A DNA stretch of 61,179 nt, filler included, from Hausera hauseri (taxonomy: Eukaryota): the NCBI GenBank assembly GCA_046269625.1. It is 11 parts of 11 records of this genome, joined end to end, with 100 filler letters (N's around TTAATTAATTAA, not from the genome) between each part and the next. Parts side by side here need not be neighbours in the genome. Positions count along the whole stretch, not along the records: positions 25,057 to 31,918 come from JBJURY010057329.1; 10 more parts are not named here. One strand, written 5' to 3'. Numbering within the stretch: position 1 is the first letter of the stretch; each line of letters opens with the position of its first letter. Under the pieces are notes generated by a model, which was given only the letters and a program-made list of their open reading frames with translations, searched no databases and was not told the origin of the DNA. Position numbers and translations under genes: made by a program. Positions 6,574 to 40,124 of the stretch are shown here, piece after piece.

Positions 6574-6631
<58 letters not shown>

Positions 6632-14343: not shown

Positions 14344-14358
14344 TTTTTAGTAGTAGGA

Positions 14359-15346: not shown

Positions 15347-15679
15347 TCCGACCTAAACGTCACTTGATGATTGTAAGATTAAATTTTGCATAAGAAATTT
15401 ATTATAAAAGTTTTGTATAGCAATTATCTCCGTCACTCATTAAATGATTCTTATTTTTGTACTTTTTTGAAATACCTGACTTCATATTGCCTGTTGATTG
15501 ATTTAACTTTGAATTGAATTTAAACATTAATATTCGCTTAAATTCCTCCTCACAACCTATATAGTAGTTACTTAGTATTACTTGACTTTATCCTATATCC
15601 CACATTACCTGATAAAGAAGGCAACACGATATTTCTACACAACATTTATTAAACAAAGAAAAACAATGAATAACGATAT

Positions 15680-18600
15680 TTACAATGTCACATGTCCGTG
15701 AGGTAATGTATGGATTCCATCGCTCAGGATCTGCCGCTTGTCATCCATCCAATCTATGCTTTTCTTATGGAGAGTTACTGTTTGGATGTTATGATCCCTA
15801 GATTGTATCCTTCTCATTTCCGATATAAAGTGAGTCTGCTCCTGCTGAACTCTCATTGTTCTCAAAACTGATCTTGGCCAATGTAGCCCTTTGAATGCCC
15901 TTGGCTATCTTTTTAATCTGACCACATACGTCTAGAGAATACATTCTGGACCTGAGAGCCACAAATTTCGAGAGGATCGCTCCATTTACCTCGTCTTTAA
16001 ATTTCCCAAAGACATTCTTATTGGCAATTAAATAGTTGGGATAATCATTCGGATGTTCCGAGGTATCCATGTGTTGAACCAATTGGGCAAAATCCTTATA
16101 AATATCATCTGTATGGATCTGATAAATGAAACTACCAGTATCCATAAACATCAGCTGCATGGACTTAAATGTGACGACCATGATGTCGTAGTGGAAATTG
16201 TACATCAAGGTCTTTGACAGGTCCAGTATCGCCATACCCACATATATGGGTTTGTTGAATACCAATGCTATTTTCAGCATGTGGATGCCTACCAAGTTCT
16301 CAGTATATATGGTGCTGATATGGAAGTTAGGCTCGGAAATAAGCTTCTTTGCCCGCTTCCAGTCACATACTAGCTCAATGTTGATCCTGTTGCGGATATT
16401 CTTCGTGGTCTTGCCAAAAACGCTGTTGTTATATAGTTTTTATTGATCTTTCTTAAAGTCTTTCTTGGCATTAGTCCGCAGCTTAGTATTGAGATTTATG
16501 TATGACTGCATCCACATGGACTGGTTGAACTGCAGGGCTCTATGGACCTTAGTAATGCGGAGTCAATGTCTAGCAGCTTGCTGGAGATTAATGAAATGAA
16601 CTACATACCTTTCCCTATTACCCATATGACAGAGCAACTTTCTATGCCTTCCATGAGCCGGAGACCTGCTCTCAGGGAGGAAAGGCAGCTGTTGATGCCT
16701 TGCGTGGATGGAAGCCGTATATTCCATTTCTACCTCCAGTATGTAGCTTGTATCTCCAGTGGGATCCAGGTCAAATATAGGGATGTTTTCAGGATTCTCA
16801 ACCCATTTGAAGTTATCATATGGCAATGCGACGCTCAATGCATATCCATACAAGTTGTTGGCATCCTGATATGATATATATGAGAATTCTTTGTTGAGTC
16901 GTATTCGGCCATATACTTGTTGTTGGCCTCACTATACCGGTGAATGGCTTGGCATATTCCGCCTCTAATGCCTCTCTTGATCATAAGGATTATATCATAA
17001 TCATTAATGATCTGCGGCCTATACCAGTATATCTCAACATTGCTGCCCAACTCATCCCTGGAGCCGTGAAGAAATGTGCCGGATCCAGTGCATGGCTCTT
17101 CATTGTAACATCCCTGAAACTCTCAAAGACATCCGTCAGCAACACATCCGTCTTGAGGTAAATATCACTGTATTCCCATATTGTTCTGCATTGGAATGCA
17201 TTCCAGACGTTTTGAGCTTGCNNNNNNNNNNGGCTATAAAAACCAGTATTTCCCATGATGTTATATAGTCATAGGGAAATATGCTTTTCTTCTTGACTAT
17301 GTCAAATGTAGTGGGGAAGAACCACTTCGTCTCCTTGAGTTCTTCTGCAAGGAAGTTCTTCACTAAACTATCCAGTGAAGACGACATGGAACAAAAGCTG
17401 TCAATGAAGCGAAGTCGGATTTTGCCCACATGCTTAGTGAAAGTGATATATTTCTCTTCACTGTTGGGGATCACATCTATATTACCATCAATGTTGCCTA
17501 ATTCTCGGACTATGAAATGGGAATCATAAACACTGAGATTATGAAACACTACAGACACATATGTGCATGTTTTGCAGCAAAGATTGAAGTTTTTGCATGC
17601 CGCGCCCCAATATGCATCTGTAAAATGGCAGTGAACCTTAACCTTCCAATTTTCCTTGGTGAAGGACTTGTCGCACAAGTAACATGCTGTTGCCTTGCGT
17701 CATTCTTCTTGTTTCCACGACATGCTCATATTATCCTTATGCTGCTGAAGCATATTTCCAAGCCTATGAGCCATGTCTTCAAGTCGTTTCATGAAATGTG
17801 CTGCTGCACCTGGACCTCTGAATAGAAATGGTTCACTGCCCAGTCCTTTGGCATACATGCAATACGATGAGAGTTCATGATATTGGTATGCCGTTGTTCT
17901 GCTATGTTGAGGACTGGGAGTGTAGCCGTGAATTGGCCAGATAATAGCTTCAAAGTCGCAATAGATAATTATTGGGACCTTGATCTTCTTCTTGAACTCC
18001 TTGAATTTAATATAATCCTCCTTGGGAAATTTTGGCCTGATACAATAATTGTTGTTGCAGTACATTTTGTTCTCAGCAAGCTTGTCCACAGCCGAATCAT
18101 CACTGAAATGGGAAAAGCATCGTTTACATATTTTTATTCTTTTCTTATGTTTCCTAATTTGGGATCTGACTAGACACTCAAAGATTTTGATCCAAACATA
18201 ATGTTTCTTTTCTGCATTGTCTAGTAGGAGCATATCCCTATGATCTTCCAATTCAGTATCATATATCTGCAGGGAACAAAATTTGTCCTCCTCATCCAAT
18301 CCAATAATGTTGATGGATATGTTGTTAATTCGGCAGAACTTCTTAATTTCATCTAAGGATGGAGGGAATGTGATAGATTGAAAGTCATAGTTGTGCTTCA
18401 GATTATTATATAGCCAAAGTCGATCTGCTGCATGTTTTTGATTCGGTACGAGTATTGGTAGAATGGCATACATGAAACACTTGTTGTCATTATTATGGAC
18501 ATTGACACATGCTTTTTATTAGCGATCCATTCCGGAAGCTGAATATAAGAACTGACCCGCATTGGAGAGTACTTGTAAACATACACAAGCAATCTGTTGA

Positions 18601-18843
18601 TAGTTGCCAGAGCCCATCCGCTCTTTTTACTCTGGCTCTCATCGGCTTCATGGATCAGCTTTGCATGCTCTTCATGCAGCCATTGTACTATATTGGTGGC
18701 TTCAAAAATGGGTCTATTTATGGTCTTGAAGTCCCTTTTGGACTCTTCGGCATCAGCATTGACGTATGTGGCTTCCAGTTTTATATTAGCCTTAATGGCC
18801 TTGAGCTCAGCTATGTTGTCCTGGAGAATCCCCTCTGTTTCTT
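15680..18843 (-). pseudogene. polB: Polinton/adintovirus-type protein-primed DNA polymerase B with endonuclease VII-like insert, frameshifted
   Basis: SGWAL..YSPMRVSSYIQLP, IYCDFEA, KVHCHFT..GAAC, FHNLSVYDSH, DANNLYGYA, YNNSVFGKT, FMDTGSF, GKFKDEVNG. Confidence 0.95.
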
Positions 18844-18945
18844 NNNNNNNNNNNNNNNNNNNNNNNNNNNNNNNNNNNNNNNNNNNNTTAATTAATTAAN
18901 NNNNNNNNNNNNNNNNNNNNNNNNNNNNNNNNNNNNNNNNNNNAA

Positions 18946-20847
18946 TCACATGGTAAAATAAGTGTAATACCACACAACCAAGAACGCTACATCACCTTCA
19001 CGAAGCATGTGGGGAAAATTGCGTTGCGGTTCATCGACAGTTTCAAGTTTATGAGTAGCAGTCTCGATGAACTAGCTAGAAATCTACCTCCGGATGCCTT
19101 CATGGAAACAATGCGGTATTTTGATGACAATCGATTGTTCAATTTGGTGACAAGAAAAGGTGTATTTCCATATGAATACATCACCGACTTGAGCAAATTG
19201 GAAGAAACTTCATTGCCACCGAGGGAAGCATTTTCCAGTTCCCTATATCAATCAAATGTATCAGATGAAGATTATGCACACGCACAAAAGGTATGGGAAG
19301 CATTCAACTGTGAAAATATCGGTCAGTACAGTGATGTATATTTGAAGACGGATGTATTAATATTGACCGATGTATTTGAAAGTTTCCGTGCAGTGACAAT
19401 GGCATCACACAAAGTTGATCCGGCTCACTACTTTACAGCACCGGGGATGGCATGGAGTGCAATGCTGAAGATGACAAAGGTAAAGCTGCAGATCATAAAA
19501 GATTACAATATGCTGCTAATGGTGGAAAGTGGAATTAGAGGTGGTCTATATCAAGTCATACATCGATATGCTGAGGCAAACAACAGACATATGCATGAAA
19601 TGTATGATGCAAGAAAACCGGATACGTACATAACATATTTAGACGCCAACAATTTGTACGGATGGGCTATGTCTCATTACTTACCATATGGTGATTTTGA
19701 ATGGATAACATGGACTGGAAATATGGTGGAGGACATACTCGATATACGAAAAACAGCATCCACAGGCTACATATTTGAAGTGGATGTGGAGTATCCGGAA
19801 AGCCTACATGTAGACCACGATCAGCTACCATTTCTACCTGAATTGGTAAAACCACCAGGAAGCAGGTGCAGTAAAATTAAGAAGTTAATTCCCCACCTCG
19901 GTGGTCGGCAGAGGTATGTGGCATATTACCAATATCTGCAGCAGGCAATCAAACATGGATTGAAAATAGTGAAAATCCATCGGGTAATAAAATTCAGTCA
20001 GTCTCCATGGTTGAAACCCTACATTCAATTTAACACGGAATTACGAAAGTTGGCCAAAAACAACTTTGAAAAGGAGCAATTTAAATTATATAACAATTCT
20101 GTGTTCGGAAAAACTATGGAGAATATCCGAAATCGACAGCACATTGAGCTGGTAAACGACTGGAGAAAAGCAAGAAAACTCATCGCAAAAACCAATTTCC
20201 TCAATTCACAAATTTACTCTGAAAAACTCGTTAGCATCCACTTGGCAAAAACCCAACTGGTATTCGATAAGCCAATATACGTTGGAATGTGTATATTGGA
20301 CATGAGTAAATTACTCATGTATGAATTCCATTATGATGTGATGCTACCAAAGTTTGGGTTGAATCAACTGCAGTTGATGTATATGGACACAGACTCGTTC
20401 ATGTATAAAATTCAGTCAGCAGATATATTTGAGGATTTTCATGAAATGGCGTCATTCTTGGATACAAGTGAATATCCCATGGACCATCCAAATTACTCAA
20501 CACAAAACAAAAAGGTGTTGGGAAAATTTAAGGACGAAGTAAATGGTGCCATTATCACAAGATTTGTGGGCCTTCGTCCAAAAATGTATGCTTTGGAAAT
20601 TGATGGTGGTATTATCAAAAAACGAGCGAAGGGTGTACAGCGTGCTGTGCTGCAAAAACATGTGAAATTTGATGACTTCGTGAAAACATTGCACGATGAA
20701 CGAACTATGTTACACACAATGCATGCAATCAGATCACAGGCTCATACAGTAACAACAGTCCAGATACAAAAGGTCAGTCTGAGTAGACATGATGATAAAC
20801 GAGAGATTATGGATGATGGGATAAGAACTAAATCATTTCTACTGTAA
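18946..20847 (+). CDS. polB: Protein-primed DNA polymerase B (Polinton/adintovirus-like), 5'-truncated by contig start, uninterrupted frame
   Basis: FIDSFKFM, RKGVFPYEY, YLDANNLYGWAM (A), KLYNNSVFGK (B), YMDTDS (C), LRPKMYA, KRAKGV. Confidence 0.97.
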   Translation, partial: SHGKISVIPHNQERYITFTKHVGKIALRFIDSFKFMSSSLDELARNLPPDAFMETMRYFDDNRLFNLVTRKGVFPYEYITDLSKLEETSLPPREAFSSSLYQSNVSDEDYAHAQKVWEAFNCENIGQYSDVYLKTDVLILTDVFESFRAVTMASHKVDPAHYFTAPGMAWSAMLKMTKVKLQIIKDYNMLLMVESGIRGGLYQVIHRYAEANNRHMHEMYDARKPDTYITYLDANNLYGWAMSHYLPYGDFEWITWTGNMVEDILDIRKTASTGYIFEVDVEYPESLHVDHDQLPFLPELVKPPGSRCSKIKKLIPHLGGRQRYVAYYQYLQQAIKHGLKIVKIHRVIKFSQSPWLKPYIQFNTELRKLAKNNFEKEQFKLYNNSVFGKTMENIRNRQHIELVNDWRKARKLIAKTNFLNSQIYSEKLVSIHLAKTQLVFDKPIYVGMCILDMSKLLMYEFHYDVMLPKFGLNQLQLMYMDTDSFMYKIQSADIFEDFHEMASFLDTSEYPMDHPNYSTQNKKVLGKFKDEVNGAIITRFVGLRPKMYALEIDGGIIKKRAKGVQRAVLQKHVKFDDFVKTLHDERTMLHTMHAIRSQAHTVTTVQIQKVSLSRHDDKREIMDDGIRTKSFLL

Positions 20848-21209
20848 TAAAGTTTTAGTGTTCACCTTTTGTTTTGTCTGTGAATTGAAATATATGCGTA
20901 TTGTTTTTCCGAATTATGTTGTAACATTGGTGATACCATCAACTAAGTATTGAGATAATAAAACCTACCAAGTACGGGTTACACGTGAAAATCTTAGTGC
21001 TTTTCCTACTTTTTGGGTATTAGTTTAAGTAATGTATATTTGTTTTCTTAATGATGAGTATTACATAAAGTTGAGTAATAATTAGAGTATGAGGTGAGCT
21101 ACTAATCAATAACACGTAACCCATTGTTATTCCGAATTGTGTTGTAACATTGGTATGTCCGCAGAAGCAAAATCGGATCGTTTGTAGTTACTCATTGAAA
21201 GTTAATACC

Positions 21210-22225
21210 TCTTGTTGAAAATTTTTATTCTATCTCAAAATACTGCTTTTGAAATAAATTTTCAGAAATTCCAAAATCAAATCACACTTTTAATATTTAC
21301 ATTTTTAATTTTAACAATAGGATTCTTTTGGAGCAACATATTAAGTTATAAACTTTATATACATGTCTTTTTGAGGACAATAATGTTACAGAATTTGTTT
21401 AACGTTCTTTATGTGACGTTCTAATATTTCGATCTCATTAAGATCTTCATCACATAACATTTTATACTCTACTCATAAACCATTAAATCTGTTACATATG
21501 ATGAGCCTTAATGAATTAAATGCCGATACAATTGTTTATGCGTTTGTCTGTCTCAGTACACGTGTCATTGGAAAACGCCCAAAAATTCTGTTAACTAGTA
21601 TTTGACACACACGCACACACACATTTAATGCGTAATTATTGATTGTTACTACCAAATGATAAAACAGTTCGAAATACGCATCTGCACGTTACTGATTTAA
21701 ATGAACAATTTATCCGACAGTCATTCGCTTTTCTCACTATGTTTGAATTATTTAACTGAATGTCAATGTTGACTTTAAAAATATTCTGACACCGCTAATT
21801 GAAACTGAACGACAAAAACAACTTTCATTCGTTGTTCAAACAACACTGTGTGAAATGGTATTGAAACAGAATGATTATATTCAACTTTTAAAGTTTGATT
21901 TACGTTGATGCCGAAAATCGCTGTTGGTCTTAATAACGAAATTTAAATGCTATTAATACGTCAAATGGTTTGTATCATTTCTGTTTAAAGGTTTGAACTT
22001 ATGGGATATGCAAGAAGATCGGTTTGTTTAATTAATAATTCACAGCTGCCCAATATTCAAAAATTGGTATTTGGGGCTTAGTGGATTCTCCTACGTGAAA
22101 CCAAAAATGACATTCTAGCCACCCCATGATTTAATTTTTAATTTTAAATTCATTGTCGAATTTTAAAATTTAAAAATGCTTTTAATTTAATTTTTGGATT
22201 TCAGTTCTCGATTATATTCTCACAG
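21210..22225 (-). repeat. AT-rich interspersed repeat, split by an ~820-bp insertion; uninterrupted copy at 49928-50105
   Basis: 21210-21314 and 22134-22225 are reverse complements of contiguous 49928-50105; atttttaattttaa duplicated at 21301-21314 and 22134-22147. Confidence 0.75.
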
Positions 22226-22489
22226 ACTACATGTTATCTTGTACACGTTTCATACTAATGAATCCCATTCTCACTTAATTAAAGTTGAACCAAAACATCA
22301 ATAATGGACAATTGATTTATATTTAATTCAAAATACTATAATATAGGACAATGGTTATTTATTCAGGGCAATTGTCAACAGCTGGTATTACGACTACTGC
22401 AAATAATAAACATTACACTAACACTACAAACACAACACTTCAATACATGGTGGTATAAATATGCGCACTAGTTTACTGTATTTCATTAA

Positions 22490-22969
22490 ATGTGCGCACA
22501 AATGTCTGAAACCGAAGAGCAGAACTATTCATTATCAAAAGGAAGCAGCACGTTGACTCAATCAAATGGTCGCTACTCTCAATACTCACTCAGAAAACCA
22601 AGGTTATTTAACGGTTACAACCTGCACTTCCTGCGCAGCCCAATTCTGTTGGTTTTGGAACACCCTGTCAAATTGAAACCTGCCAAGTATGGGTTGCAGG
22701 TGAAAAACATTCATGATGATGATCTTGATGCCGTGGAAGAATCCATCAAGAAAATCGATAACGACTTGGTGTTGTCAAATGATAGTAGAGACACCTCATC
22801 GATTTTCATGAAAGGAAATATGAAGAATGTTGTTGACTCAAGAGGACAGCCATTAACCCTACCAGCGGGAGGAGTAAAAGGAAACCTAACGATCAAAATC
22901 AAAGGCTTTAAGGAGATTCACTTTCACAAGACACCCATGTGGAAGTTGGGTAAATTTACCTCCATTTAA
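22490..22969 (+). CDS. Polinton-associated orphan ORF, possibly an OB-fold ssDNA-binding protein
   Basis: Intact 159 aa; TATAAATA at 22454, TCATT initiator-like motif ~29 bp later, AATAAA after the stop; beta-rich C-terminus GNLTIKIKGF..PMWKL. Confidence 0.6.
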   Translation: MCAQMSETEEQNYSLSKGSSTLTQSNGRYSQYSLRKPRLFNGYNLHFLRSPILLVLEHPVKLKPAKYGLQVKNIHDDDLDAVEESIKKIDNDLVLSNDSRDTSSIFMKGNMKNVVDSRGQPLTLPAGGVKGNLTIKIKGFKEIHFHKTPMWKLGKFTSI

Positions 22970-23637
22970 CTTCATTCATTTCTTTGATTTATAGTTTAAT
23001 AAAATGTTAGTGTTATTATTCTTACTGCTTTTTATTTTCCTTTCGTCCTTGTTGGGTATTAGTTAAAGTAATGTACTTTTCACACACTTTCTATTTCTTT
23101 ATTATTGTCAAATATTTTCATAATCTAAGAAATTATTGTTACAAAATCCAATTCGTTTGTTGAGAACCACCGAGCAGCCAGTCGAAAGTGTTTGTTACAA
23201 AAAGTCACAGTCATGTTAAATAAGCTGCTGCTGATGCTGCTTGTGAATCCACATTGAACAAATTCATTAACCCGAAACTTGTTAATAAACTTTTATTCAA
23301 ATTGTTTTAACAATTATAAATTATTAATTCCTATTAATGGATAGTCAATAATTCAAATGTCATGCATAAGTGATTACGAAACGTAAAACTTTCCAAATGT
23401 GAATAATGTTATGATTTGAAGCCGTGTCTTGTTTTCTTAATTTTTCCAAAATCCGTATCTCTTCCGAAGCCTGTCGATTGAGTCTTTTCTCATTTCAAAT
23501 CATTTTTAACATAACATAAACGTTACATTTATGATAATAGGCCTTCACAACCTGACCTAACCTTCCTTAAGAGGTCTACTTACTTAATTATAAACAATTA
23601 TTCTAAACGCTACAACATCAACAACGACTAAAATCTC

Positions 23638-23904
23638 ATGGAGCAGTACATTGAAACTGAGATTAAGAAACTGACCGATGACATTTTGACTGGACATGTG
23701 TTTGATGTTCAGTTTTTGTGTGAGCTTACAGAAACCCGAATAATTAGCCGACGGGAATATATCGATTTAATAGTCAGATCTCTCTTCGTACAACGCATCA
23801 AAGATGAAATGAGTCGGAAACGGCAACGGATTAATATCCTTATTGCACTCACACTTTCTGTTTCATTTTGTATTGTATTCAAGAAATTGATTGACCATAT
23901 TTGA
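23638..23904 (+). CDS. Small orphan ORF with C-terminal hydrophobic (tail-anchor-like) helix
   Basis: Intact 88 aa; TATAAA at 23589; RKRQR then INILIALTLSVSFCIVF. Confidence 0.55.
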   Translation: MEQYIETEIKKLTDDILTGHVFDVQFLCELTETRIISRREYIDLIVRSLFVQRIKDEMSRKRQRINILIALTLSVSFCIVFKKLIDHI

Positions 23905-24036
23905 CTATTTTTGTTTTTGTAATACATACTATTTCGCTATACGTTTGTTTTTATGTGTCAATTACATTTATTTCATTTCTTTTCCTTACACTACTGTATA
24001 AATACTTGTGCTTCTTCGTTCCTGTATGATTATAAA

Positions 24037-24495
24037 ATGACTCATTTGTCACAACTCATTCGCTTATATTACACCTTTGATGGTCTCCGGAGTCACCTAT
24101 ACAATCTCGATCGGCCTTTACCGCATGCTTGGTATTCGTCTCCTGAAACGATACTGCTAAGTGCTGAGGAGAATTGGAAGGCACGGGAACCTTATATACG
24201 ACATATGAAGCAGGTTATTGGTGACATCGATATATTATTCGGTCAGATTTTTCACACATGGCAGAAATTGGTGGATACCTATGCACTGTGTGGCAACAGT
24301 CCACGTCAAATGCAGTTTGTAGATGATTTTGTCCAAAGCGACCAGATAGATTACATTCCCATGTGGCAATCAGCGGATCAGATTTGTTTTAAGCAACATT
24401 TCAATATAACCAATTCCGATGGACTCGTTCATTCTCCTACGGAATTGGTAAACCCATGTGGTTTGTGTGCTTCTAATTCATCAGAAACGATTTAA
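24037..24495 (+). CDS. Orphan ORF (likely start MTHLSQL) with C-terminal Cys/His motif
   Basis: TATAAATA at 23997, then AAAATG; intact; C..H...CGLC near the end; AATAAA downstream. Confidence 0.55.
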   Translation: MTHLSQLIRLYYTFDGLRSHLYNLDRPLPHAWYSSPETILLSAEENWKAREPYIRHMKQVIGDIDILFGQIFHTWQKLVDTYALCGNSPRQMQFVDDFVQSDQIDYIPMWQSADQICFKQHFNITNSDGLVHSPTELVNPCGLCASNSSETI

Positions 24496-24599
24496 TTGTT
24501 GTTGCTGTTGTACAAAACAAAGGAAATAAATGTTCTATTCAGACTTGGTGGTATGCCCCTTTTAAACGATTTTACAACGATAATGATTTTGATTTTTTG

Positions 24600-24956
24600 A
24601 CCTTTCACAATGCGTTTCGTTTCGTTTTTGTGATTTATCCGTTGGTCTGATCGGCAGGCGATTATAATACTAAACTTTCTCCTACTTATGCGCAATGTAT
24701 TTGACCCATTTCCATCACCGTCTAACTTGTGCAAGGGGAAATTTTACCAATTTGAAAATTTCCCATCGATTTTCCCCCATGTTCCCATGGTCTGACAGAG
24801 TTTCAACAGTGTCCATTGTAATCGCCAACATCGATTTACCCTTTGTACACATTTTCTCAGCGCTAACAGAATGTTTCTCGTTACACGTGGCGCTTTTCCT
24901 GTTTTGCTTCTGCCTCTTCTAGTGAGCCTCTCCCTTACATTTTTCAAAGCTGCAGC
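24600..24956 (-). repeat. Probable Polinton terminal inverted repeat segment
   Basis: Reverse-complement homology with ~36400-36740 (shared cggtgatggaaatggg, gaacatgggg, gtaaaattt); stops in all frames checked. Confidence 0.55.
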
Positions 24957-25711
24957 NNNNNNNNNNNNNNNNNNNNNNNNNNNNNNNNNNNNNNNNNNNN
25001 TTAATTAATTAANNNNNNNNNNNNNNNNNNNNNNNNNNNNNNNNNNNNNNNNNNNNAGTCCAACCATGAGTTTTGTTTCTGAAACATTCGCCTTTTACTT
25101 TTCATTATTTCTCCACCTCTTACAGTGATATGGATTCCGATTTGTTTTATTTCCAACACTGTCCATTAATCTAGTTGTATTCCTGTATGAAAAGTTGTAT
25201 TCCATTTATCAGCGTGGTGTTGTATATTTCTACGAACAATTTATGGGAACTCAAATAATATTTTATGGTGACCATGATCAGATGTTTGATCATAAGGATA
25301 TCAGAATATCTGGAACTTTAAAATCAAATCTTCCAAACATCAATAGGAAATGATCCAATAGCCCGATTGGAGACAATTACACCATTTGTAATATCAGCAT
25401 CGTCCTCATCGTCTTCAAACGCTCAAGCAGACCACTCAATCCATTGTTGTGGTGAGACGTGTGAAATAAATCGGAAAGAGGAACGTGGATATATTTTCGT
25501 CAGTGTCATCAGTTTTGATCAGATTCCTTTGGGGTTTGCGTTTTTGTGCCGTACTGGAATATGACAATACGTGCAATATTATAATAACTGTTATCTAGAT
25601 TGTTGATGTTTTGTTTTACGAGACTAAATGAATAGAAACGAAAGTGTAATTTTTTTTAGAAATTTGAATAAATTGATTGAATTTTATGTTGACGATTTGG
25701 AGACCAACATT

Positions 25712-25729
25712 TGGTGTCAGAAATGGGAT
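25712..25729 (+). promoter_or_regulatory. Primer-binding site complementary to tRNA-Leu 3' end
   Basis: TGGTGTCAGAAATGGGAT, 17/18 to TGGTGTCAGAAGTGGGAT, preceded by ACA-tt. Confidence 0.8.
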
Positions 25730-27625
25730 TACCCCCACCGACAAAAAGGCAAAAAATATCTAGCAACGTCGATACAGCCAATTATATGAATATAATTAAT
25801 TGTGGTTCGCATAGTGAAACTCATAATGGTTACATTATTGACGAAAATCTGTACAGCCGTCAATTATATGTTATTGGAAAGGAATGTATGAGGAATACTG
25901 CCAATTCTAACACTGTAATATCGGGACTTGGTGGTCTAGGTGTAGAAACAGCGAAAATTCTCATTTTGGCTGGTGTAAAATACGTTTATGCTTCATGATA
26001 AAAAATTGGTTTCGTCAAGTGATCTTTCATCACAATTTTATTTCAAAAAGTCTGATATTGGAAAGGATCGAGCCGAAGCTTGTCTGGTCAAATGACAAGA
26101 ACTAAATTCATAAGTTATTGTTAACCAAAGCTCAGAAGATTTAACATTGAATTTTCTTAAACGATTTACACTAGTCTTCCGGACGAATTCAACTCACGAA
26201 GAGTGCATAAAATTAGGAAATGTTTGCCATAGCAATAACATTCTACTGATTATTTCACGAAGTGCTGGACTTTTCGGTCGAGTTTTTTGTGATTTCGGCA
26301 CCGAACATTTAATTAATGATGCTATTGGTGAATAGCCGTTATCTATTATGATTCAGAGTGTTTCACGCGAAGAAGGAATCGTTCTTTGTTTAGAAGAAAC
26401 AAGACACGGTGTTGAAGATGGTGACTGTGACGTTTTCCGAATTTAATGGAATGACCGAATTGAATAATTGTGAACCACGGGAAATCAAGGTTGAGGGCCC
26501 AGTAAGTTTCAATATTGGTGGCACGTCGAAGTTATCATCGTACATTCATGGTGATGTTTTTATGCAAGTGAAAATGCCTCAGACTGAATCGTTCAAGTCT
26601 TTTGAAGAAGCTTACAAATCATCGGAATTTGTTGAGTGATTTTGTCAAAATGGAAAGACCCGAACAATTGCATTTGTTGTTATCTTTGGTGGATAAAGTA
26701 TATCCGAATGACTTTCCAAGTCTCTTAAAACAACTGAAAGAGGTCCGTGAAACAGCGTTTCCAAATATCGAGTTAAATGAAGAACTTGCTTCGTCATTTT
26801 TCAACTATACTAATGGAAATCTAGCTCCGATGCAGGCTGTAATCGGTGGTATTACAGCACAGGATGTATTCAAAGCAACTTCATCAAGATTCTTTCAGAT
26901 TAAACAATCCTTTTATTTCGACGCATTGGAATGTTTACCGGACAGTAGCGAGTCAGAAAACATTGCTAATGGATCCAATCCACTCACGTGGAGTACAAAT
27001 CATACGACAGATATGGAAGCCAGATTTCCTTTTTCAGCGTTGATGTCCAACAGAAGCTTTCCCATTTAAAATTGTTTATAGTCGAGTCCGATAAAACTGG
27101 TTGTGCATTGTTGAAAAGCTTTGCTGTAATGGGCGTTGGATCGATGTTCGAGGGTCAGGTCAGTTATAATTATCGATATGGACAATATAGATAAGTCCAA
27201 TCTTAATCGACAGTTTCTTTTCCGACCGTCGGATATCGGCAAATTGAAATCGTTGACTGCGGCAAAAGCATTCGATTTGAAAGTTGGTAAAGAAACCGAG
27301 TCTTTCTTTGACGATTCGTTTTTCGACAGTATTGACATTGTTGCAAAGGCACTGGATAACATCGACGCCCGAATGTACATGTGTATACGATGTGTCTTCT
27401 ATCAAAAACCGTTGCTCGAGTCGGGCACTTTAGGAACGAACATCCAAGTTATCTTTCCTCACTTGATTGAATGGTACAGTTCATCACAATATCCACCGGA
27501 AAAGTCAATTCCAGTTTGTACATTGAAGAATTTCCTATACACAATCGATCATACTATCCAATGGTCAAGTGACATGTTTGAGGGGTTGTTTACTCAGCCA
27601 TCGATTGCTGCACTACAATTTTTAA
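25730..27625 (+). pseudogene. UBA1: Ubiquitin-activating enzyme E1 (5' ~60%), intronless and disrupted
   Basis: [84 protein letters not shown] (active-site Cys). Confidence 0.96.
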
Positions 27626-28682
27626 ATATCAGGGAAAAAATTATTAACTCTGCTAACAATTCACAGTCTACAGAAAACTTCGAAAACGCTGTCATTATTG
27701 CATTTATGGTCGCCGATATGCTTAACGAATTGATTAATAAAAAATTCGATGTTCTCATAAACTTTCTTATTGGTACTTGTTCAGACAAAATTAAAACTGC
27801 CGATGTGTACCTCCAGGTCATTGATCTTCACATTTACAATTTAATTTTGTATTTTGTTTTAATGGCTCAGCTGTTATGCCGCATTGGACGGTATGGCGAA
27901 ATGCCTTATGCTTTGAATTCACTAAACAGAAAGATGACCTCGAATAATTCGAAATTGTTTACCACAAGTACAACTGGCACTATGAAGTAACTGAAACCCA
28001 ATCCACACGAGCTGTATCCTCTATTAAGAAACCGAAACCTTCTTTTCATCCTATTTGCAATAAAACCGACTAAAAGGTACATTGGATTTAATGGTCTATG
28101 ATCTAATTGAATCTTGTCGAAATTATTTGAAAGTTAAATGCTTCGAAATTGTTTGACAAAATTTTAGTGAATCCCAAAGTTTTAGATTGCAACACATCGC
28201 TGGAAGATGACGAAAGGACATGCGAAAGGCGATGAAGTTAATGCCAAGCAAATTGAATCTGCCAGAAACCCATGTGTCTGTCTGTCAAATCGACGCTCAC
28301 TGTCAAGTGTTGGACTTCGAACTTTCTGGCCCAGACCACCGTAATAATCCAATGGACGTACTGCGAGTCAACAGCAACCTCACCGATCGACTGGCAGACA
28401 TTCCATCATTAGAGGCATCTAAACACAGGTTGGTGAAGTTCTCTTCTCTGATTCACGCCCGCCAGTGCGACCATTTTTTGCGAATATACAAATCTTTCAT
28501 AGCTAACACCATTTTTCATTGTAAGGGGGTTTTTAAGCTCAACAACTTTGGATATTCCTTTATCACAATCATCATTTGCCACTTCTTCCCCGGCTGTACG
28601 CTCGAACCTCTCCTTAACCCAGAAGGAAACCGCCCAAGCCCCCCATGCATTTCAACATTATCCTCGGATTACCTCGCTGCAA

Positions 28683-29950
28683 CTTTCCTTACTGGCCTTC
28701 AGCAATAATCAACAAATTAAAGCCATTAGAGCTCCACTCAACACCACAGCGCTGCTCCTATACAACTCTATCCTCCTTACTCAACACTTCTAACTTCTAT
28801 TTCACACATCCAGGTATCACTGTACATCCTGTCGACTCCCTCCTGTCTTTCGTATGCCACGAACGTCCAGTCACCCATCTCATGCTCCATTTTCGTCTTC
28901 GTGGTGGATCGGACTCAAATTCATCTTTCTCGGATGATAGATCCACAAATACATATATTTATCGTCTACCAAATGGTCAACAAAGACGAGCCTTGCTAAA
29001 TCTACCTTGTGGAGATTTTTTTCTTGATAAAAACAACTCCAGCAAACCATGGCTCCAATTCCATCAACAGTGGATAAAATCCAACAACATCATCGACTTC
29101 TTTGCGCGAGCCAATAGTCTTTTGATACTTCTTCCTGCCAACGTCAAGCAGCAGATCAGTAACATCTCTGAACTGCTCCAATCATCGACACCATATGAAA
29201 CACTCTGTGAAGCTGTACTCCATATTATCGATCCTTCGATAGATTACATTATACGTAAATACTTTAATGATCATGCGATAGGAAACCAAAGCCATCCGAT
29301 TTTCTCCAAACGGCCATTCTGCAGTTTAGCACTTTAGGAGTAACACCTACGAATAACGCGGATTTAATTCGACGTTATTTTTTGTCATCTTTGCCTATCT
29401 CAATCAGAGCACTGCTCACCGTTGTCGACGAGTCCACTGCTATCGAAAAACTGGCCATAATGGCCGATAAATCCTTTGAGATTCTCCACACAAATAATTC
29501 TCTCCCAATTTCGGCTGCAACCACATGTGCTCCAACTACAGATACCACATTATTCACTCAACAATTGCAAATGATGCAGCAACAGTTTGACAAGTAATAG
29601 CAGTCAATTAGGACCATTACTACCCAACTAAATAATCTTAATGGGCCTCGACGAAGTGATGCAAAACCTTCAAGGGAGCCAAGCACTTCAAGACTCTCGA
29701 CTCGATCCATTTCACCTGGCGGACGTATAACTTGCTTCTATCACATGCGTTTTCGAAAGGAAACAAGGAAATGTTTCTTGGGCTGTCAATTCTATAGCAA
29801 GCGATACGCTGTAAACAACCCTATCTAAATATACCATAACAAATATTAGTCACAGGCCAGGTCATGTGTGCTTGCTTGTAAACACTATAAAGATAAATTT
29901 CCTCCTTTTCCTTCCTCATCTTTCTTTTCTCCAAATCCTTCAAAAACTAA
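28683..29950 (+). pseudogene. gag: CsRn1-type Gypsy gag with ubiquitin-like domain (28683-28908) ending HLMLHFRLRGG
   Basis: Two-frame reconstruction of a 76-aa Ubl; capsid-like region; C-x2-H-x9-C-x3-C box (CFYHMRFRKETRKCFLGC). Confidence 0.88.
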
Positions 29951-31918
29951 TAATGCCGCCAGATTTTACGGCACATTCTGGCGCAGGCAATATCGCTCAA
30001 TCTTCTGGCCGTTTTAACACCGCCTCTGCAGTCTTTCTGTTGCAAGATGCATTGTTATGCAGAGATACCTCACATATCGAATTTCTAATAGATTCAGGAG
30101 CTTCCTTCTCACTCCTTCCATTGTCCTTCACCCCTACATCCACTATAATTTCCTGTCCTCCGCTTTTCACTGTCAGTGGACAACTGTTGCATGTTACAGG
30201 AACAACGGAACTGACTTTCACTTTCGCCAACTTGCCAGATAAGTTTGTTTGGAAGTTCCACATGACCAATATTAAATCTCCCATAATTGGCTTAGATTTT
30301 CTTGTTGCACATGATCTATTAATCCATCGCAAATACGGCTGTTTTCTAAGCAGGAACTCGATCGCAATTCCAAACATGTGTTTCGCAAACAATCTAGCGA
30401 GCAATTCATTGCACGCATCTGTAAACATGTTGAACGCTTTATCATTTATAAAAAAGGCTTCCGATAAACTCGGTATTCCTTCAATTACGAACAACAATCA
30501 TAAATCTATTCTAAAACAAAAATCCAAATTAGGTGTCGACAGTAGCGATGCCAGTTGCTTTTTGTAAATCACTAAAGCTGTTCTTTCTAATGATATGCCT
30601 CATTCATTTTTATCTCTAGATTCCGATCGTAAATCGTACATCACGAAGTTATGCTTTCGCATAGTTAAACGAGACATCAACTTCAAGCTCTTATTCTCAA
30701 CTTATCATCACATAGTAACAGAGCATTAGAGGCCTGTCAAACAAAAGGTCAGACCCTTGTCGCCACGCAAACGTAAAGCTGTGGAACAGGAATTTAATGA
30801 AATGAAAAGGTCTGGCATCATTCGGAGATCGAATTCACCGTGGACTTCTCCTATTCATGTAGTGGTAAAGAAAGATGGTACCTATAGGCCATGTGGCAAC
30901 TATCGACAAATAAATAATCTAACTGTTACAAATGCCAATCTACTACCACTTATTAAGGATATTCTTCATAGTCTCAATAACATTAATACCTACTTTACAA
31001 TTGATCCGCACAAGGCCTACCATCAAATTCCTGTTGCACCCGATGACATCCCAAAAACTGATGTCGTCACACCATTTGGTCTTTATGAATACATCTCTAT
31101 ACCTTGGCAGAGCATCTCTCCTTTCAGCACCACATTGACATCTTTCTCTCAGGTCTTGATTTTGCTCACCCATACATAGATGACATATTAGCCGCTTCCA
31201 CCTCGATCAAACAACATCATGAGCACCTTACAATTATTTCCCACTGATTGCATCAAAGCAACCTGCAAATCAATTTTGCCAAATGCAATTTCTTCCAGAA
31301 ACACGTCAACTTCTTAGGCCACATAATTACTCCCGAAGGTCATTCGCCCCAGCCTGATCGCTTATAGCAATTAAAAAATGTGACATTACGACCTACTACT
31401 ACTACCCATATGAGGAATTTTTTAGGGACACTGCATTTCATACACAAATACCTGCCACATTGCTCCGAGCTAACGGCACCTTTCGCAACCCTCCCATCGG
31501 CGAAGAAAAGACAATTAATCCATTGGACTCCCGATCTAGTAAATCATTTTGACTGCCTTCGTTAATGTCTAAAAACCGCTGAAATTTTGGCTTTTTTAAA
31601 ACCAAACGCGGAACTGATATTAACTACCGATGCCTCAACCACAGCCACTGGTGTGATATTACACAAATATACAATGATGTTGACGAGCTATTTGAATTCT
31701 ATTCCCGAAAGCTCACGCAACCGGAAAGCCGATACTCAACATTCGATCGTGAACTCCTGGCCGTAGTTCTAGAGGTAAAGCATTTCGAACATTTGCTTGT
31801 ATCACGTCAATTTACCATCCAAACCGACCACAAGCCTCTATTTCATATCAAGACGTTAAAACAGCCATCTCCCAGACAGGAACGACAAATATCATACCTG
31901 TCGATATTCAGTTTTTCT
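29951..31918 (+). pseudogene. pol: Gypsy pol (protease, RT, RNase H), disrupted, truncated by contig end
   Basis: FLIDSGASFSLLP, IIGLDFL, SNSPWTSPIHVVVKKDG, HPYIDDIL, LTTDAS, STFDRELLAV. Confidence 0.95.
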
Positions 31919-32522
31919 NNNNNNNNNNNNNNNNNNNNNNNNNNNNNNNNNNNNNNNNNNNNTTAATTAATTAANNNNNNNNNNNNNNNNNNNNNNNNNN
32001 NNNNNNNNNNNNNNNNNNGAAATCATCCACCTTCAGGAACCGAAATCTAGAAGCCCTTGAATATAAATGGGAGTTAGACTTCATGTACACTTATTAATGA
32101 TAGTAATGAATAGTGTTTTTAGAGAATCGCATTCTCATATCCTCCTGGTTGATGGTGGACGAGAAGATCATTACAGGAGGATGTCAAATTAGGCATGGCC
32201 AGTAAGAATATTTGTTAGTTTTTATTCAACAAGACGAGTTAAAAATTTGTATAAAGATTGTCGATTAGTTTATCAGGTTATAATGAATACCAGTAGGTGC
32301 AGGCTGACTTCGGTCACCGTGCCGCCTGAACTCCGGCTTTGGATGAGGCTGATAATATATCTATATGAACTTCTCACGAAAACAAGAATCCTGTTGGGTT
32401 ACCTTGTCTACTATAACTAATTCTTTAAGTTGCTTTACATGTTAATATAATTCTCAGCAGGGACAATTGTCAGATAAATAAGAAATAACCCACACCCAGC
32501 TAACCTGCTAACTAACATAAAT

Positions 32523-32540
32523 TGGTGCCCCGAGTGAGGA
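32523..32540 (+). promoter_or_regulatory. Primer-binding site complementary to elongator tRNA-Met
   Basis: TGGTGCCCCGAGTGAGGA, 17/18 to TGGTGCCCCGTGTGAGGA; preceded by ACA-taaat. Confidence 0.75.
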
Positions 32541-32612
32541 AGTGTTTCAAATGTCCTTATCTCAGTCTTTTAAAATAAAAACCGTTGACTTAATTTTACA
32601 GAATCCAGCACA

Positions 32613-32876
32613 GTGGAATGCGGAATTTGCTTTCGCGAAATTCATCTACGACATGCTTTATTTGTCAGGTGTACCCATTTAACCTGTGTACCATGTGCAA
32701 ACAAATGGCTCAGTAGACAGCAGAATTGTCCTGTCTATCGACGAAAGGTATCGAGTTATAATTGCATGGGAAATACCGTAGTAGTCCTCCCGGATGACGA
32801 AAATGAAGAAGTTGAAGAGGACCCCAATCTGATCTATCTGGTGGGACCAAATGGAATATTACACATATTGATATGA
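32613..32876 (+). pseudogene. Small RING-HC finger gene with acidic tail
   Basis: CGIC-x13-CTH-x2-CVPC-x10-CPVY (last Cys to Tyr). Confidence 0.8.
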
Positions 32877-33255
32877 AGTAGTGACTGTGGGATATTTACA
32901 ACTGTAGTAGTTTTATTAATCTGTTAAGAATTGAATAAATTCCTGTGGTTATTGACAATGATTAATAATACGATAAAGGAAAGATGGTTAAAATGATTAT
33001 TAAAATTATTAGTTTATTTGTCATTAAAGAGAAAGAAAAGTTGGAGGATGAAGAAGTATCAACATTGCGATAACTGTTTCGAAACAACTGGTTTAGAGTC
33101 ATTTAGTATGACTATAAAATTAGATTTTTGCACATTAATCGGTGAAAATATAGAAGAAAGAAATGTCTATTAAAATAGATAGTAAAAGAGAATAAATAAA
33201 CCAGTATTGAATTACGAGTTAATTATGGAACTATATATTAACAGACATTGCTTTA

Positions 33256-33495
33256 GCGTGTACTATATGCCAGAAATATTCCATAACTTTAATGGAAGGA
33301 AATAATCCTTGTTCTCTGTGCAGATTTATCATGGAACTGGGAGAAGAGGATAACTAAGTCAGATGCAGTCACTGCGGAGAAACGATAGACCTAGAGATAG
33401 CCACGATGGATGAAAATTGCCTACCTTTATGCCCAATATGTGTGCTGACGCTAGCAGATATAGACGAAATAAATATGTTATTGAATAATTTGTAA
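33256..33495 (+). pseudogene. Double zinc-ribbon ORF (four CxxC), one internal stop
   Basis: Manual translation ACTICQKY..NPCSLCRF..*VRCSHCGE..PLCPICVL; absent from the ORF track. Confidence 0.6.
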
Positions 33496-33550
33496 ATAAC
33501 AATTGTAATACTCAATAAATGTCAAGTTCTCATAAAGTTGATATATAAAT

Positions 33551-33988
33551 ATGGAAATTAAACGATAGTATTTTATAGAAACCTCTCATATCTGCCTGGA
33601 GAACCTGACCCAGGAACAAACAACTTTGCCTTGCGGTCATCAGTACTGTCCGCATTGTATACTTACATGGCTATCCGAACAAACCACTTGTCCATGCTAC
33701 CGAAGAGCATGCACGTTTTGTACAACATGCTTAACTATAGTAGTGGATACATTGGCAACACTTCCTTGCCAACGAGCCTTTTGTCAAAACTGTATAACAG
33801 AACATTTCAAGATTTATCGAACATATCCTTCTTGTTACGAGTTTACAGATTTTTAATTTTTGGGACAACTAATTGTTTATCTGGACGTTGACAATAGACA
33901 GTCAAGAATACAATTAATAGATGAGGATGAAGAAGAACGGCAGGATGAATGGAGAAATGCCAGACCATTTATGATTGCTGACTCATAG
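33551..33988 (+). pseudogene. Tandem double-RING gene with acidic tail, in-frame stops
   Basis: HICLENL..TLPCGHQYCPHCILTWL..CPCYR then CTTC..TLPCQRAFCQNCI..YPSC; DEDEEE tail. Confidence 0.75.
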
Positions 33989-34648
33989 GCTATTGTATAT
34001 AAATTATTATTGTATATGAAATGTCAATAAAATTAATGTATTCATTTCATTTCGGAAAGGGATTAATATCAGTTCTATTAAGGTTCCCTTTGTCTACTGT
34101 GCAGAAGGCACATCTTATGCTACGGATTCCAAGTCCCTTGTTTTCACGTGACACCGAATACTCACCCCATCTATAATCCACAAGGAATATTTACTCCTAT
34201 AGGAATGGCCTGCACAATCTGTTTACATCATTATTTCGTAAACCCGGTGGAGTTGGTCACATGCAGACGTGAATTTTGCCTCTCCTGCTTAAAGGAATAG
34301 TTCCTGATATCAAAATCCCGCCCTTTGTGTCGTGCAAATAATAGACTATTTCGAAGCGGAAACCTATACTTTACTGTACGAAATTTATAAAAACATTCTT
34401 GTTCTTACAAGCCATTTAATTGTGCGGGATGAAATAAATATAATTATTACCCACAAATAGAATAATTGATTAAAACCCATTTCGTTTTAGACGAAATGCA
34501 AAGGATCGAATATACGGAATACAGAACGTCGAAATAGTATGAATGTCAGGAATCATCTAAACTCTATATAATAAGATACTTACGATATTACAGAATTAGA
34601 CAAAATTGACCAGCTACGATTATTAGAAGAACTATAGATTATACAAAG

Positions 34649-35701
34649 ATGGAAGTGATTGACAACTCAGTGAGAGATACGCAGACGAGAAAAATATTTT
34701 TGAGCCACTCGAATTCACCCGTTCCAGGAGAGTTAGCACAGCCATATGCAAACACTGGATTATTTCGAACCACGTCTGGACGAATAAAATGCCTATAGTG
34801 CCAGGGAGAGTTCCTTTATGAGTCTACAAACTTTTATTCAAAAAGGACTCATAGGAAATTATATACTACCTGTCCTTATTTGTTAAACATTAATGCTAAC
34901 AACGTACCACTGAGAGATTGCTTTTCTAAATAGCCTGATGTAGAGGCGGATACTGGTTACGATACGATAATACCAATTTGAATGGTTTACGCAACGGATA
35001 ACGCTGTGGAAAAAAACGTATACCTAATTTCAAGCACAGTACAAAGAGAAAGTCAACCTTCAAAGGAAACAAGAATATTGAACATTTAGCCAGACAAGGA
35101 CTAATATTAATCTTAAAAGGCGAAGAGTAATATGTAAAATGTACCATATGTTTAAAAGAAACTTACCAGAAAATATTGACCAGCGATGTCCAAGCATATT
35201 GCATACTACCAAATGCAATTATTTAATTTGTAAAATCCTCCAGAGTTACACTACAAGACGATGCCGAATACAATTCGATATGGGAAACCTTTACGAGCGT
35301 TACCAGGAAAGTCCAGTAGCCGTATCAATAATAGCCTGACATCCTACAAAGCGTAAAAGTATACTACAAGATATTAAATATCGAACAGAAATTCAATCTG
35401 ACTGGTCTATAAGTGCATTCGAACTGTTTCAGAATCTAAATTTTGTTTCTCCAGAGGAAGAGAGAGAACCAGAACAAAATATTCTAATGAACTTTACCTG
35501 CGCGATTTGGAGTGTACAATCTGCTACGCAGACTCAGTGCAAGTTATCCTTTTGCCTTGTGGTCATTTGAAAACATGCGAGGAATGCTCAAATCGAACAG
35601 CGAATTGTTCAGTTTGCAGAAGTCATATAGAAAGAAGAATAACATGTCTCCAATTTTCAGAAATGAACATAGAGAATATCTCTATTTTGAACGAACACTG
35701 A
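34649..35701 (+). pseudogene. Inhibitor-of-apoptosis-like gene (BIR-BIR-RING), intronless and disrupted
   Basis: BIR1 R..F...YANTGL...IKCL*C...H...TCPYL...NNVP; BIR2 RKSTF..LARQGL..VKCTIC...HTTKCNYL; RING ECTICYADSVQVILLPCGHLKTCEECS...CSVCR. Confidence 0.8.
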
Positions 35702-36175
35702 CCAATAAATTAATGTATAACCGATATGAATAAATAAATGTTTATTAGCCTATGTATATGAATTTATTAAATAACCCCGCATTGTGACAGATTGAACAAA
35801 TTTGTTTATAGAATTAGCAAATATCAACAGCATAATCCTGAACAACCTCAACAATTGGACAATCCAGTTACTGACTATAAGAAATCAACCCCTAAAAGAG
35901 TTTACGGATGGTAAAAACTATACAGTAATCCTCTACTCAATAGGATAACGGAACTAGGATACTCCAAATATCTGGCTATGATTGCCATCANNNNNNNNNN
36001 NNNNNNNNNNNNNNNNNNNNNNNNNNNNNNNNNNTTAATTAATTAANNNNNNNNNNNNNNNNNNNNNNNNNNNNNNNNNNNNNNNNNNNNATTTGACATG
36101 GGATCATGATCAGTGATTTTGAGAAATATTACTTAAATTATAGACAAAACATGCTTGTGACAGAAATATTATTAA

Positions 36176-36740
36176 AGTAGGTAGAAGTGTGGGCTCCACC
36201 CCACTTACCCAAAAGTGCTCAGATAAACCTCGAACTTAGTTTTCCCCGCCTATTTCGCAATTCTGAGCATTTCATGTCTCGAAGTCGGAGACCCTCCCCC
36301 AAAAAAGACGGTCGAGTAATGGACTTTGAACTGAGACCAATCGGTCGAGCCGGACAAGGCGAACAAAAGTTAACAGCGCCGCTAAGCTCAAAAATGTAAC
36401 GCGGTGGCACAGGAGGCGGAAGAAGAAAAACGGGCAATATGCAACTGGCAACACAACACATGTTGCTGGTATACCGAAATTTTGTAGAGGTAAAATTGAT
36501 GTTAGCAAGTCGAATGGACACGGTTTCGTCGTCGTTCAACCAAAAGAACATGGGGAAAACCGGCTGGGAAAATTTCCGTCGGGTAAAATTTCCCAATGTT
36601 CAAGTCTGCCGGTGATGGAAATGGGTGTCATACATTGCTCATAAGTTGGGTAAGTTTCATATTGTAACCGCCTCACGATCGGACTAACCGATTCGGGTGA
36701 AAATGCAATCGAAAAACGCATTGTTAAAAAGTCATCGTTG
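36176..36740 (+). repeat. Probable Polinton terminus and TIR
   Basis: Begins AGTAGGTAG (Polinton ends start AG/AGT) at a shift from AT-rich flank; homologous in inverted sense to 24600-24956. Confidence 0.5.
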
Positions 36741-37056
36741 TAAATGAGTTCGTTTTTGTAGAAAAATCGTGAATTTTATTTTGTACGACGACGACAACAA
36801 CGCTTAAAACAGAATGCATAAATCACCACGAGCTCATAATTGAGTACTACTACTCACAAGCAGGTGGTCGTGGTGACATCGGAGACCGTCTGCCTAGAAA
36901 CTAATAAGTACCACCACCACCAAATGTGTAACAGAGATATTAAAATGATATAACAACAGCAACAGCAATATAACAAGTTTTATATTTCAAAATCACAAAA
37001 ACAATCTGTCTGCCTCTCTGTCCATTCAAAAAAGCGGAATACGTTCATAATTGCGT

Positions 37057-37419
37057 CTATAATATAAGCCACAACATGCAGTAATGTCCACACAATACGG
37101 TAAGTAGATGTTCATAATGAAATCGATTATATTCAACAAGATATGATTATCTTTCAATTTGAGAAACTAAAGATGATGGGTAATAAAACACGAGTGGATC
37201 GAATACTTTGATGATGGTCAGATGTACTTACACTGCAATCCAATGTTCACCCGGTAGCGATGAACTGTGTCTATTGACGATGAAACCTCCTGCACCATTT
37301 TGTCGTAAGTCACGCGGCACACGATCCAGTGGAAACACACCGCAGAATTTTACAACCAAGAGCAGTTTTCCATAGTAACTGAGTTTAGTTAAGCTAAACG
37401 TAAAACGTGATTTAATCAT
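37057..37419 (-). pseudogene. Adenain-like cysteine protease of Polinton
   Basis: FCGVFPLD..FIVN..PGEHWIAV*..VFDPL..LCGHYCMLWL: His/Asp/Cys triad in one frame with two stops. Confidence 0.9.
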
Positions 37420-37477
37420 AATGATAATAATGGTAATAAATTACTTCGTGGTACAAAGAGGAAGAAGAAGGTTTTAT

Positions 37478-40111: not shown

Positions 40112-40124
40112 GATCTCGATGATT

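Follow-up and report, generated by a model that had tools for sequence, protein, structure and literature searches.

A UBA1 copy at a tRNA-Leu primer-binding site and a possible cargo slot ahead of gag in a CsRn1-like Gypsy lineage

How does an intronless copy of an essential host gene come to start at the primer-binding site (PBS) of an LTR retrotransposon and to be followed by gag and pol? We addressed this question for a UBA1 copy on contig 5 (25057-31918) of a 61,179-nucleotide stretch of DNA, the window (1-61179), in which 11 unrelated contigs are joined by N44-TTAATTAATTAA-N44 spacers. Since the window is a set of joined contigs, its UBA1, IPO5 and POLD1 cases are unlinked. Junctions and introns were compared in a sequencing run, X1, which contains half of contig 5's words and whose cover has a hole at 25616-25641. 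The best database proteins share just 53-65% identity with the host genes, and in a 29-row tree IPO5 sits, together with three rows, on a long branch that lies apart from fishes, insects, molluscs, nematodes and cnidarians. The chimera DNA comes from an invertebrate; our guess at the host, from a 40-nt intron described below and the CsRn1-like elements, is a flatworm-like parasite. Contig 1 is CpG-depleted (0.40, vertebrate-like), while the CpG observed/expected ratio is 0.59 on contig 3 and 0.8-1.1 on contigs 2 and 4-11; a second, non-fish organism within the assembly is the likely source of this contrast.

The UBA1 chimera on contig 5

The sequence ACA-TT-TGGTGTCAGAAATGGGAT at 25707-25729 contains a tRNA-Leu PBS (25712-25729, plus strand) that matches the 18-nt PBS of intact relatives (loci L002, L003 and L006, see below) at 17 of 18 positions, the mismatch being at position 12. 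Its first 12 nt are those of the Leu-tRNA PBS printed for Steamer elements in the accessible text of PMC8905726. The DNA upstream (25057-25711, plus strand) is LTR-like, with a U5 end supported by a sister copy, a candidate PPT (25473-25483) and a candidate LTR containing AATAAA (25484-25709). From this DNA a Met with 28 open codons (25628-25711, plus strand) continues into the PBS; the frame is WCQKWD, and the intact relatives show the same arrangement. Downstream lies a processed, 3'-truncated and decayed UBA1 copy (25723-27690, plus strand; profile positions 8-683 of 1049). Profile homology begins at 25729 and extends through five frame segments with three stops and no intron-size insert; the copy is near-complete at its 5' side, truncated at its 3' side and devoid of poly(A). 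Its reading frame is VSE, whereas the frame left open from the LTR onward is WCQK. Next comes an older leader of no recognised origin (27691-28673; the stretch 28393-28826 is common to contig 11), and the UBA1 frame remains open for 99 codons past the UBA1 homology (4/5000 shuffles). The leader is followed, still on the plus strand, by a frameshifted ubiquitin-like domain (Ubl) ending in LRGG (28674-28908), a CsRn1-type Gag (28909-29830) and a decayed pol (PR-RT-RNase H, 29815-31918). The Gag carries a CX2HX9CX3C (CHCC) motif at 29733, which is not known from the Steamer/SURL C clade. Contig 5 stops inside pol, so that a second LTR and a target-site duplication fall outside view. UBA1 is thus flanked on both sides by LTR-element sequence on the same strand, with an LTR end and PBS upstream and Ubl-gag-pol downstream, and the preliminary description of an intronless UBA1 that begins at a tRNA-Leu PBS and is followed by Ubl-gag-pol was borne out.

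Short, unplaced, repeat-rich contigs invite the suspicion of an assembly chimera, all the more as X1 and the source sample may be connected; a plain segmental duplicate of an intron-poor gene would be a further trivial origin. A 127-nt X1 contig, however, matches 25662-25780 without a single difference and departs from the window sequence immediately upstream. Consequently, the PBS-UBA1 junction is present in the sequencing data. Another X1 contig is interrupted between 25865 and 25866 by a 40-nt insert with GT..AG ends, and the window lacks precisely these 40 nt, so an intron-bearing UBA1 exists and the gene is not intronless throughout; this loss of a parental intron concerns one intron in one run, and the intron-bearing contig may represent a UBA1 paralogue or another organism in X1. 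Since the pattern also recurs on three contigs and in a gene model of another organism (P0274, below), we consider chimeric assembly or duplication extremely unlikely. It had also been conceivable that the upstream DNA was single-copy and unrelated to an LTR. This is not so: in an X1 sister contig the same upstream DNA extends up to 25706 and is followed by CA-T, the Leu PBS (with two deviations) and then non-UBA1 DNA. The PBS therefore belongs to the element, and UBA1 was joined to it there. The first Met of UBA1 overlaps PBS nucleotides 12-14, the single mismatching position, and on this sequence overlap the crossover may sit inside the PBS.

Could UBA1 and the element have met by chance, as a LINE-made processed pseudogene next to which LTR elements inserted or recombined? 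The poly(A) tail and 5' truncation expected of an L1-type processed pseudogene are absent from the UBA1 copy, which is near-complete at its 5' side and truncated at its 3' side, and neither an LTR nor a Trp PBS was found between cargo and Ubl in the window. The preliminary description had offered a variant in which elements integrated with an unremoved tRNA copy; it leaves unexplained why the copy is intronless and 3'-truncated and why the Ubl-gag-pol behind it has no LTR. What does favor a chance encounter is the low depth of the LTR end beside gag-pol. Summed X1 depth, which is not copy number, rises along contig 5 from 6 at the junction to 35-110 in UBA1, 500-900 in the leader and 2000-18000 in gag-pol; the LTR and pol of contig 5 may accordingly stem from different subfamilies. 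Depth at the junction (about 6) is also far below that deeper in UBA1 (25-70; again, depth is not copy number), which indicates that most X1 copies of UBA1 do not show this 5' junction. X1 contigs with a summed depth of 80 skip 364 nt at 26467-26832, and a deleted UBA1 variant seems to have been amplified more than the window copy. At 25777 an X1 contig joins UBA1 to a different 58-nt 5' part, which could be the parent, a paralogue or a second capture.

Other host-gene copies in the window

The compound motif CA-N1-3-TGG (with at most 1 mismatch) occurs three times in the window against 0.19 expected (Poisson P=0.001), and each occurrence sits at the 5' portion of a copied host gene. The second PBS (57433-57443, plus strand, 11/11 nt) is in frame with an IPO5 copy (57439-60450, plus strand; profile positions 22-1025 of 1097) that has neither an intron-size insert nor poly(A). 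Behind it come leader sequence that contig 5 has as well and the first half of a Ubl, which other DNA then interrupts (60646-61077, plus strand). IPO5 lies in the WCQK frame, which is open for 31 codons upstream. The junction attributed to IPO5 in the preliminary description thus repeats the UBA1 pattern, but the PBS match is limited to 11 nt and the junction lies about 20 codons inside the ORF. Microhomology at the switch point is plausible for IPO5 only: V-R is the commonest dipeptide at that place (20/48), and a 2-nt offset is required. The idea that the upstream DNA is IPO5's own N-terminus was not supported (score 4.4 against at least 20.6 for real homologues, p=0.11). Two orphan open frames lie upstream of this PBS (55390-56871); by eye one of them (56173-56871) resembles a DEDDh exonuclease, without a Pfam hit.

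The POLD1 case, on the minus strand of contig 10, consists of the RNase H-integrase end of a pol of the same clade (53668-55127), a PPT and an LTR of about 560 nt (TGTGG...ACA, 52745-53312) that starts as in L001 and L004, the third PBS (52733-52743, 10/11 nt) and a POLD1 copy with internal deletions that ends at the contig end (51144-52600). About 130 nt downstream of the PBS, 13 nt of the PPT/LTR-start junction recur exactly (52599-52611, minus strand; 0/3000 random stretches score as high). Because these 130 nt and the 13-nt copy precede the recognisable POLD1 N-terminus, POLD1 is not joined directly at the PBS, and the case is weaker than had been claimed. The 13-nt copy could mark a miniature LTR-PBS-PPT remnant with POLD1 at the second LTR start, or microhomology at the start of POLD1.

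Contig 2 carries, on its minus strand, a decayed 5' part of NAT10 (12898-14340) whose own 5' end is cut off, with a limit read by eye and no visible PBS, and a Drosha RNase III fragment (11873-12157, E 1e-4) in the same frame as the Ubl with one stop between. A TGGTGT at 14274 was rejected as a PBS, as it has 2 mismatches, lacks the CA and by eye reads as W-C of NAT10; NAT10 is cut by a likely Polinton end. The stretch between NAT10 and the Drosha piece (12409-12894, minus strand) is fibronectin-III-like by eye with no Pfam hit, and is possibly a further captured gene. Ubl-Gag-pol with a degenerate CHCC (7585-11707, minus strand) and a PPT with the start of the 3' LTR (6858-7020, minus strand) complete this element. 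On contig 8, 145 open codons of no recognised origin, a Ubl, a CHCC Gag (motif at 42892) and pol occupy 40301-44372 on the minus strand. All five identified host pieces (UBA1, IPO5, POLD1, NAT10 and Drosha) lie in the element's sense, which is a further point against chance juxtaposition, and gag and pol remain in order after the cargo on contigs 2 and 5. With IPO5 repeating the pattern and NAT10 and Drosha on contig 2, the earlier proposal of recurrent capture of housekeeping mRNAs as LTR-PBS-host gene-gag-pol chimeras gains support.

Frames upstream of the Ubl are long even in these dead copies: besides the 99 codons past UBA1, a frame of 246 codons on contig 2 that passes through the Drosha piece is broken by a single stop (0/5000 shuffles), and the 145 codons of contig 8 were matched in 1/5000. 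Ordinary LTR-mediated retroposition with no special slot would treat such frames, and the PBS junctions, as incidental: reverse transcriptase would switch by short homology anywhere in the leader, and the Ubl would have another role (stability, targeting or decoy). This reading gains from the fact that a full-length PBS abuts cargo only at UBA1 and not at POLD1, and from the partial, 3'-truncated, multi-gene and re-amplified LTR retrocopies of Tan et al. 2016 (PMC5131818), who in the accessible text also report one recurrent switch site in BLASTOPIA. Against it, the internal ORFs are replaced in all the Drosophila cases in that text, whereas here Ubl-gag-pol remains in order on contigs 2 and 5; moreover, the long open frames upstream of the Ubl and the invariant GG described below call for an explanation. 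We regard a slot-free origin as unlikely.

Several searches of the window returned nothing. Six upstream/LTR regions compared pairwise gave 0/15 pairs above shuffles, the three junction upstream regions being without detectable similarity. Trp PBS matches in the window were at chance (9 loose matches against 8.6 expected), and tRNA and Rfam searches gave no match. Among leader ORFs, Pfam searches of 20 and 77 pieces yielded weak chance rows only, and PDB searches of three yielded none. The window also contains other remnants. Polinton/adintovirus-like pieces occupy 14875-24956, 36091-40200 and 14350-14774, with a Pfam match to protein-primed DNA polymerase B on contig 3, a homologous 633-aa open frame on contig 4 and, judged by eye, frames on contig 7 that resemble a capsid and an ATPase. 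At 32019-35990, short RING-finger genes in decay, three of them with Pfam hits, form a cluster with what by eye is a BIR-like piece; the whole resembles a virus-like IAP/RING cassette. The stretch 44608-51043 contains remnants of Tc1 and piggyBac transposases and a CCHC gag from another family.

Intact relatives, the ubiquitin-like domain and ORF1

Used as a query against 1.84 billion representatives, the Gag of contig 8 gave 22 matches. In 16 of the 22 relatives a GG lies shortly before the Gag start motif; five lack that motif and one lacks the GG. Among 12 rows picked for having the N-terminal part, both glycines are invariant at about 30% identity. A profile of the relatives (A2) aligns to PDB ubiquitin with the GG in register, a structure model of the relatives' Ubl matches ubiquitin with a TM of about 0.8, and with the Ubl profile all four copies in the window were recovered. 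Intact relatives thus carry a ubiquitin fold that ends in GG ahead of Gag. A fold search with a model of the decayed window Ubl was uninformative (best Z 4.8), profile A1 found no match in PDB, and a homologue search with profile A2 returned only two rows, both its own. The Ubl of locus L004 (Pfam ubiquitin E 7e-24; L004:1110-2597) is near true ubiquitin, while that of the other relatives is highly diverged; it was possibly refreshed recently from a host ubiquitin mRNA. By analogy with captured ubiquitins elsewhere, host hydrolases may cleave after the GG, a step to which we give an even chance.

DNA of relatives was supplied by seven metagenome loci (L001-L007); locus searches for P0249, P0242, A3 (viral) and the RH-IN piece gave no loci. 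A Leu PBS lies upstream of Ubl-Gag in six of the seven loci, at 18/18 in three of them. Two of these six appear to be one element, and the seventh locus has only about 220 nt upstream of the match. The preliminary description had warned that the PBS might belong to another family, since described CsRn1-clade elements use tRNA-Trp; the six loci dispose of this caveat and indicate that the CHCC lineage uses tRNA-Leu. In the relatives a G-rich PPT is followed by an LTR starting TGTGG, TGTCG or TGTGC, an arrangement also present on contigs 2 and 10. The pol-PPT-LTR-PBS order on contig 10, like the fragmentation of the contigs, could be counted in favor of independent events brought together. The order pol-PPT-LTR-PBS-gag, however, also occurs in L004, L006 and L007, the last a circular contig, which argues that the order on contig 10 reflects LTR collapse in the assembly. 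Taken with the same-sense cargo and the state of the UBA1 ends, this makes chance juxtaposition, with or without an unremoved tRNA copy, very unlikely.

In all five distinct PBS loci a stop-free stretch of 77-146 codons leads from an upstream Met across the PBS to the Ubl. Shuffled sequences were as open in 0/5000 trials for four loci and in 8/5000 for one. The start of this frame, ORF1, lies 96-252 nt upstream of the PBS in L002, L003, L004, L006 and L007, and ORF1 crosses the PBS in frame; the same five loci have a hydrophobic stretch after the PBS. Since this open frame has its Met in the LTR and runs past the PBS up to the Ubl, the cargo slot lies inside ORF1, a point absent from the preliminary description. 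From the PBS to the GG the distance is 363-445 nt in the relatives, compared with 3.2-3.5 kb in the window and about 3.2 kb on contig 5. Upstream of each of the three window junctions no frame stays open longer than WC (28, 31 and 43 codons); UBA1 and POLD1 read in the VSE frame, one that other relatives use. Since all three PBS frames occur among relatives, being in frame is by itself weak evidence.

Cargo also appears in gene models. In P0274, from another organism, an MVSEV PBS peptide is followed by a 5'-nucleotidase piece, the Ubl and Gag, and in P0241 a CNOT1 piece directly precedes the Ubl. P0241, P0248 and P0249 have DIS3L (1-364), ARP8 and HSP90 pieces upstream of a putative PBS peptide; these are either cargo inside the LTR or gene-model merges.

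Capture at the PBS and what it may mean

Plus-strand strong-stop DNA ends in a copy of the primer tRNA. An obligatory plus-strand transfer pairs this PBS copy with the minus strand (PMC3187697, in the accessible text), and m1A58 sets the plus-strand strong stop (PMC8599865, likewise). Since the transfer has to proceed through the tRNA-derived end of the strong-stop DNA, aberrant junctions would fall at the PBS. We propose that the intronless, 3'-truncated UBA1 is probably the copy of a packaged mRNA, acquired while the element was being reverse-transcribed and placed in an N-terminal extension of ORF1 which host deubiquitinases would cut off at the GG. LTR-mediated capture alone is very likely, while the strand-transfer step at the PBS stands at roughly even chances. 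During minus-strand synthesis, reverse transcriptase would switch from the element's leader into the middle of a packaged host mRNA, which would account for the 3' truncation and the lack of poly(A). Synthesis would return at or inside the PBS, where plus-strand strong-stop DNA, ending in the PBS copy, could pair with the host cDNA through a few bases. Gag would then be translated through the cargo stretch, so that in-frame captures would survive, and cleavage at the GG by host deubiquitinases would restore the normal N-terminus of Gag, leaving gag-pol usable and the chimera free to be re-copied. Host enzymes that sever the ubiquitin link would release the capsid protein, and this is the likely reason why the slot can accommodate cargo. 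Repeated rounds would stack fragments with the newest beside the PBS, in line with the X1 depth gradient of contig 5. All window copies are now dead; the living side of this biology is to be found among the intact relatives.

How does this compare with known systems? Retroviral strand-transfer errors were reportedly treated by Pulsinelli and Temin in 1991; unlike the present case, they are described for deletions in retroviruses and not for recurrent host-gene capture. That LTR elements of metazoans capture host mRNA by template switching was reported by Tan et al. 2016 (PMC5131818), in whose main text, as far as it is accessible, the terms "PBS" and "primer binding" are absent. Their retrocopies are likewise partial, 3'-truncated, poly(A)-less, sometimes multi-gene and later re-amplified, but in the available text the cargo replaces internal ORFs and makes the element non-autonomous, whereas here it lies upstream of Ubl-gag-pol in an ORF1 that crosses the PBS. 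With the CsRn1 clade (PwRn1, AgCR; PMC2582038, accessible part) the lineage shares a CX2HX9CX3C Gag, a DUF7041 Gag and the order PR-RT-RH-IN; it differs in its tRNA-Leu instead of tRNA-Trp PBS, in the Ubl-GG before Gag and in an ORF1 that begins in the LTR. We therefore call it CsRn1-like, on Gag motif and domain order, and do not file it as a member of CsRn1, whose Trp PBS it lacks. The Steamer/SURL C-clade Gypsy elements have the same 12-nt Leu PBS, but their LTRs start TGTAACA and measure 153-219 nt, and no Ubl is reported in the accessible text (PMC8905726). Switching of the PBS has been described among tapeworm Saci2 families (PMC12471100, part of the text). The bdelloid Juno and Vesta elements, with a captured ORF3, are also autonomous LTR elements with extra captured ORFs; there, however, the extra ORF is 3' of pol and family-specific, and the word "ubiquitin" is absent from the accessible part of that paper (PMC5408684). 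Closest in function to the proposed Ubl-GG-Gag are the ubiquitin insertions of cytopathic pestiviruses, in which, according to the accessible text of PMC8310069, captured ubiquitin is cut by cellular hydrolases and the downstream protein receives an authentic N-terminus. There, too, a host protein piece can lie upstream of ubiquitin, but those insertions are short-lived recombinants of an RNA virus, whereas the Ubl is here a fixed, diverged family trait. A search of openly accessible papers found no published description of Ubl-Gag or of capture into a PBS-gag slot. On our best reading, then, LTR-mediated mRNA capture is known, and what was not found in print is a cleavable N-terminal extension that leaves gag-pol in place.

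More tentatively, and with somewhat less than an even chance, this Ty3/Gypsy lineage, widespread and undescribed, would be a built-in gene-capture vector, in which host genes are captured at the PBS, translated, cut off at the GG and stacked in a polar manner while the element stays autonomous. An ORF that reads through the PBS is unusual in itself, and the PBS hotspot offers a natural, countable test of reverse transcriptase jump sites. Among retrotransposons, the lineage is also a counterpart to the ubiquitin insertions of pestiviruses and to the transduction of oncogenes. Capture of host mRNA by LTR elements is known but usually wrecks the element's genes; if the proposed model is true, a cleavable ubiquitin spacer could allow the lineage to transport parts of host proteins and have them expressed with no loss of autonomy. 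Such a lineage would be a steady source of retrogenes and exon shuffling, and possibly of dominant-negative fragments or antisense guides against the essential UBA1, IPO5, POLD1, NAT10 and Drosha.
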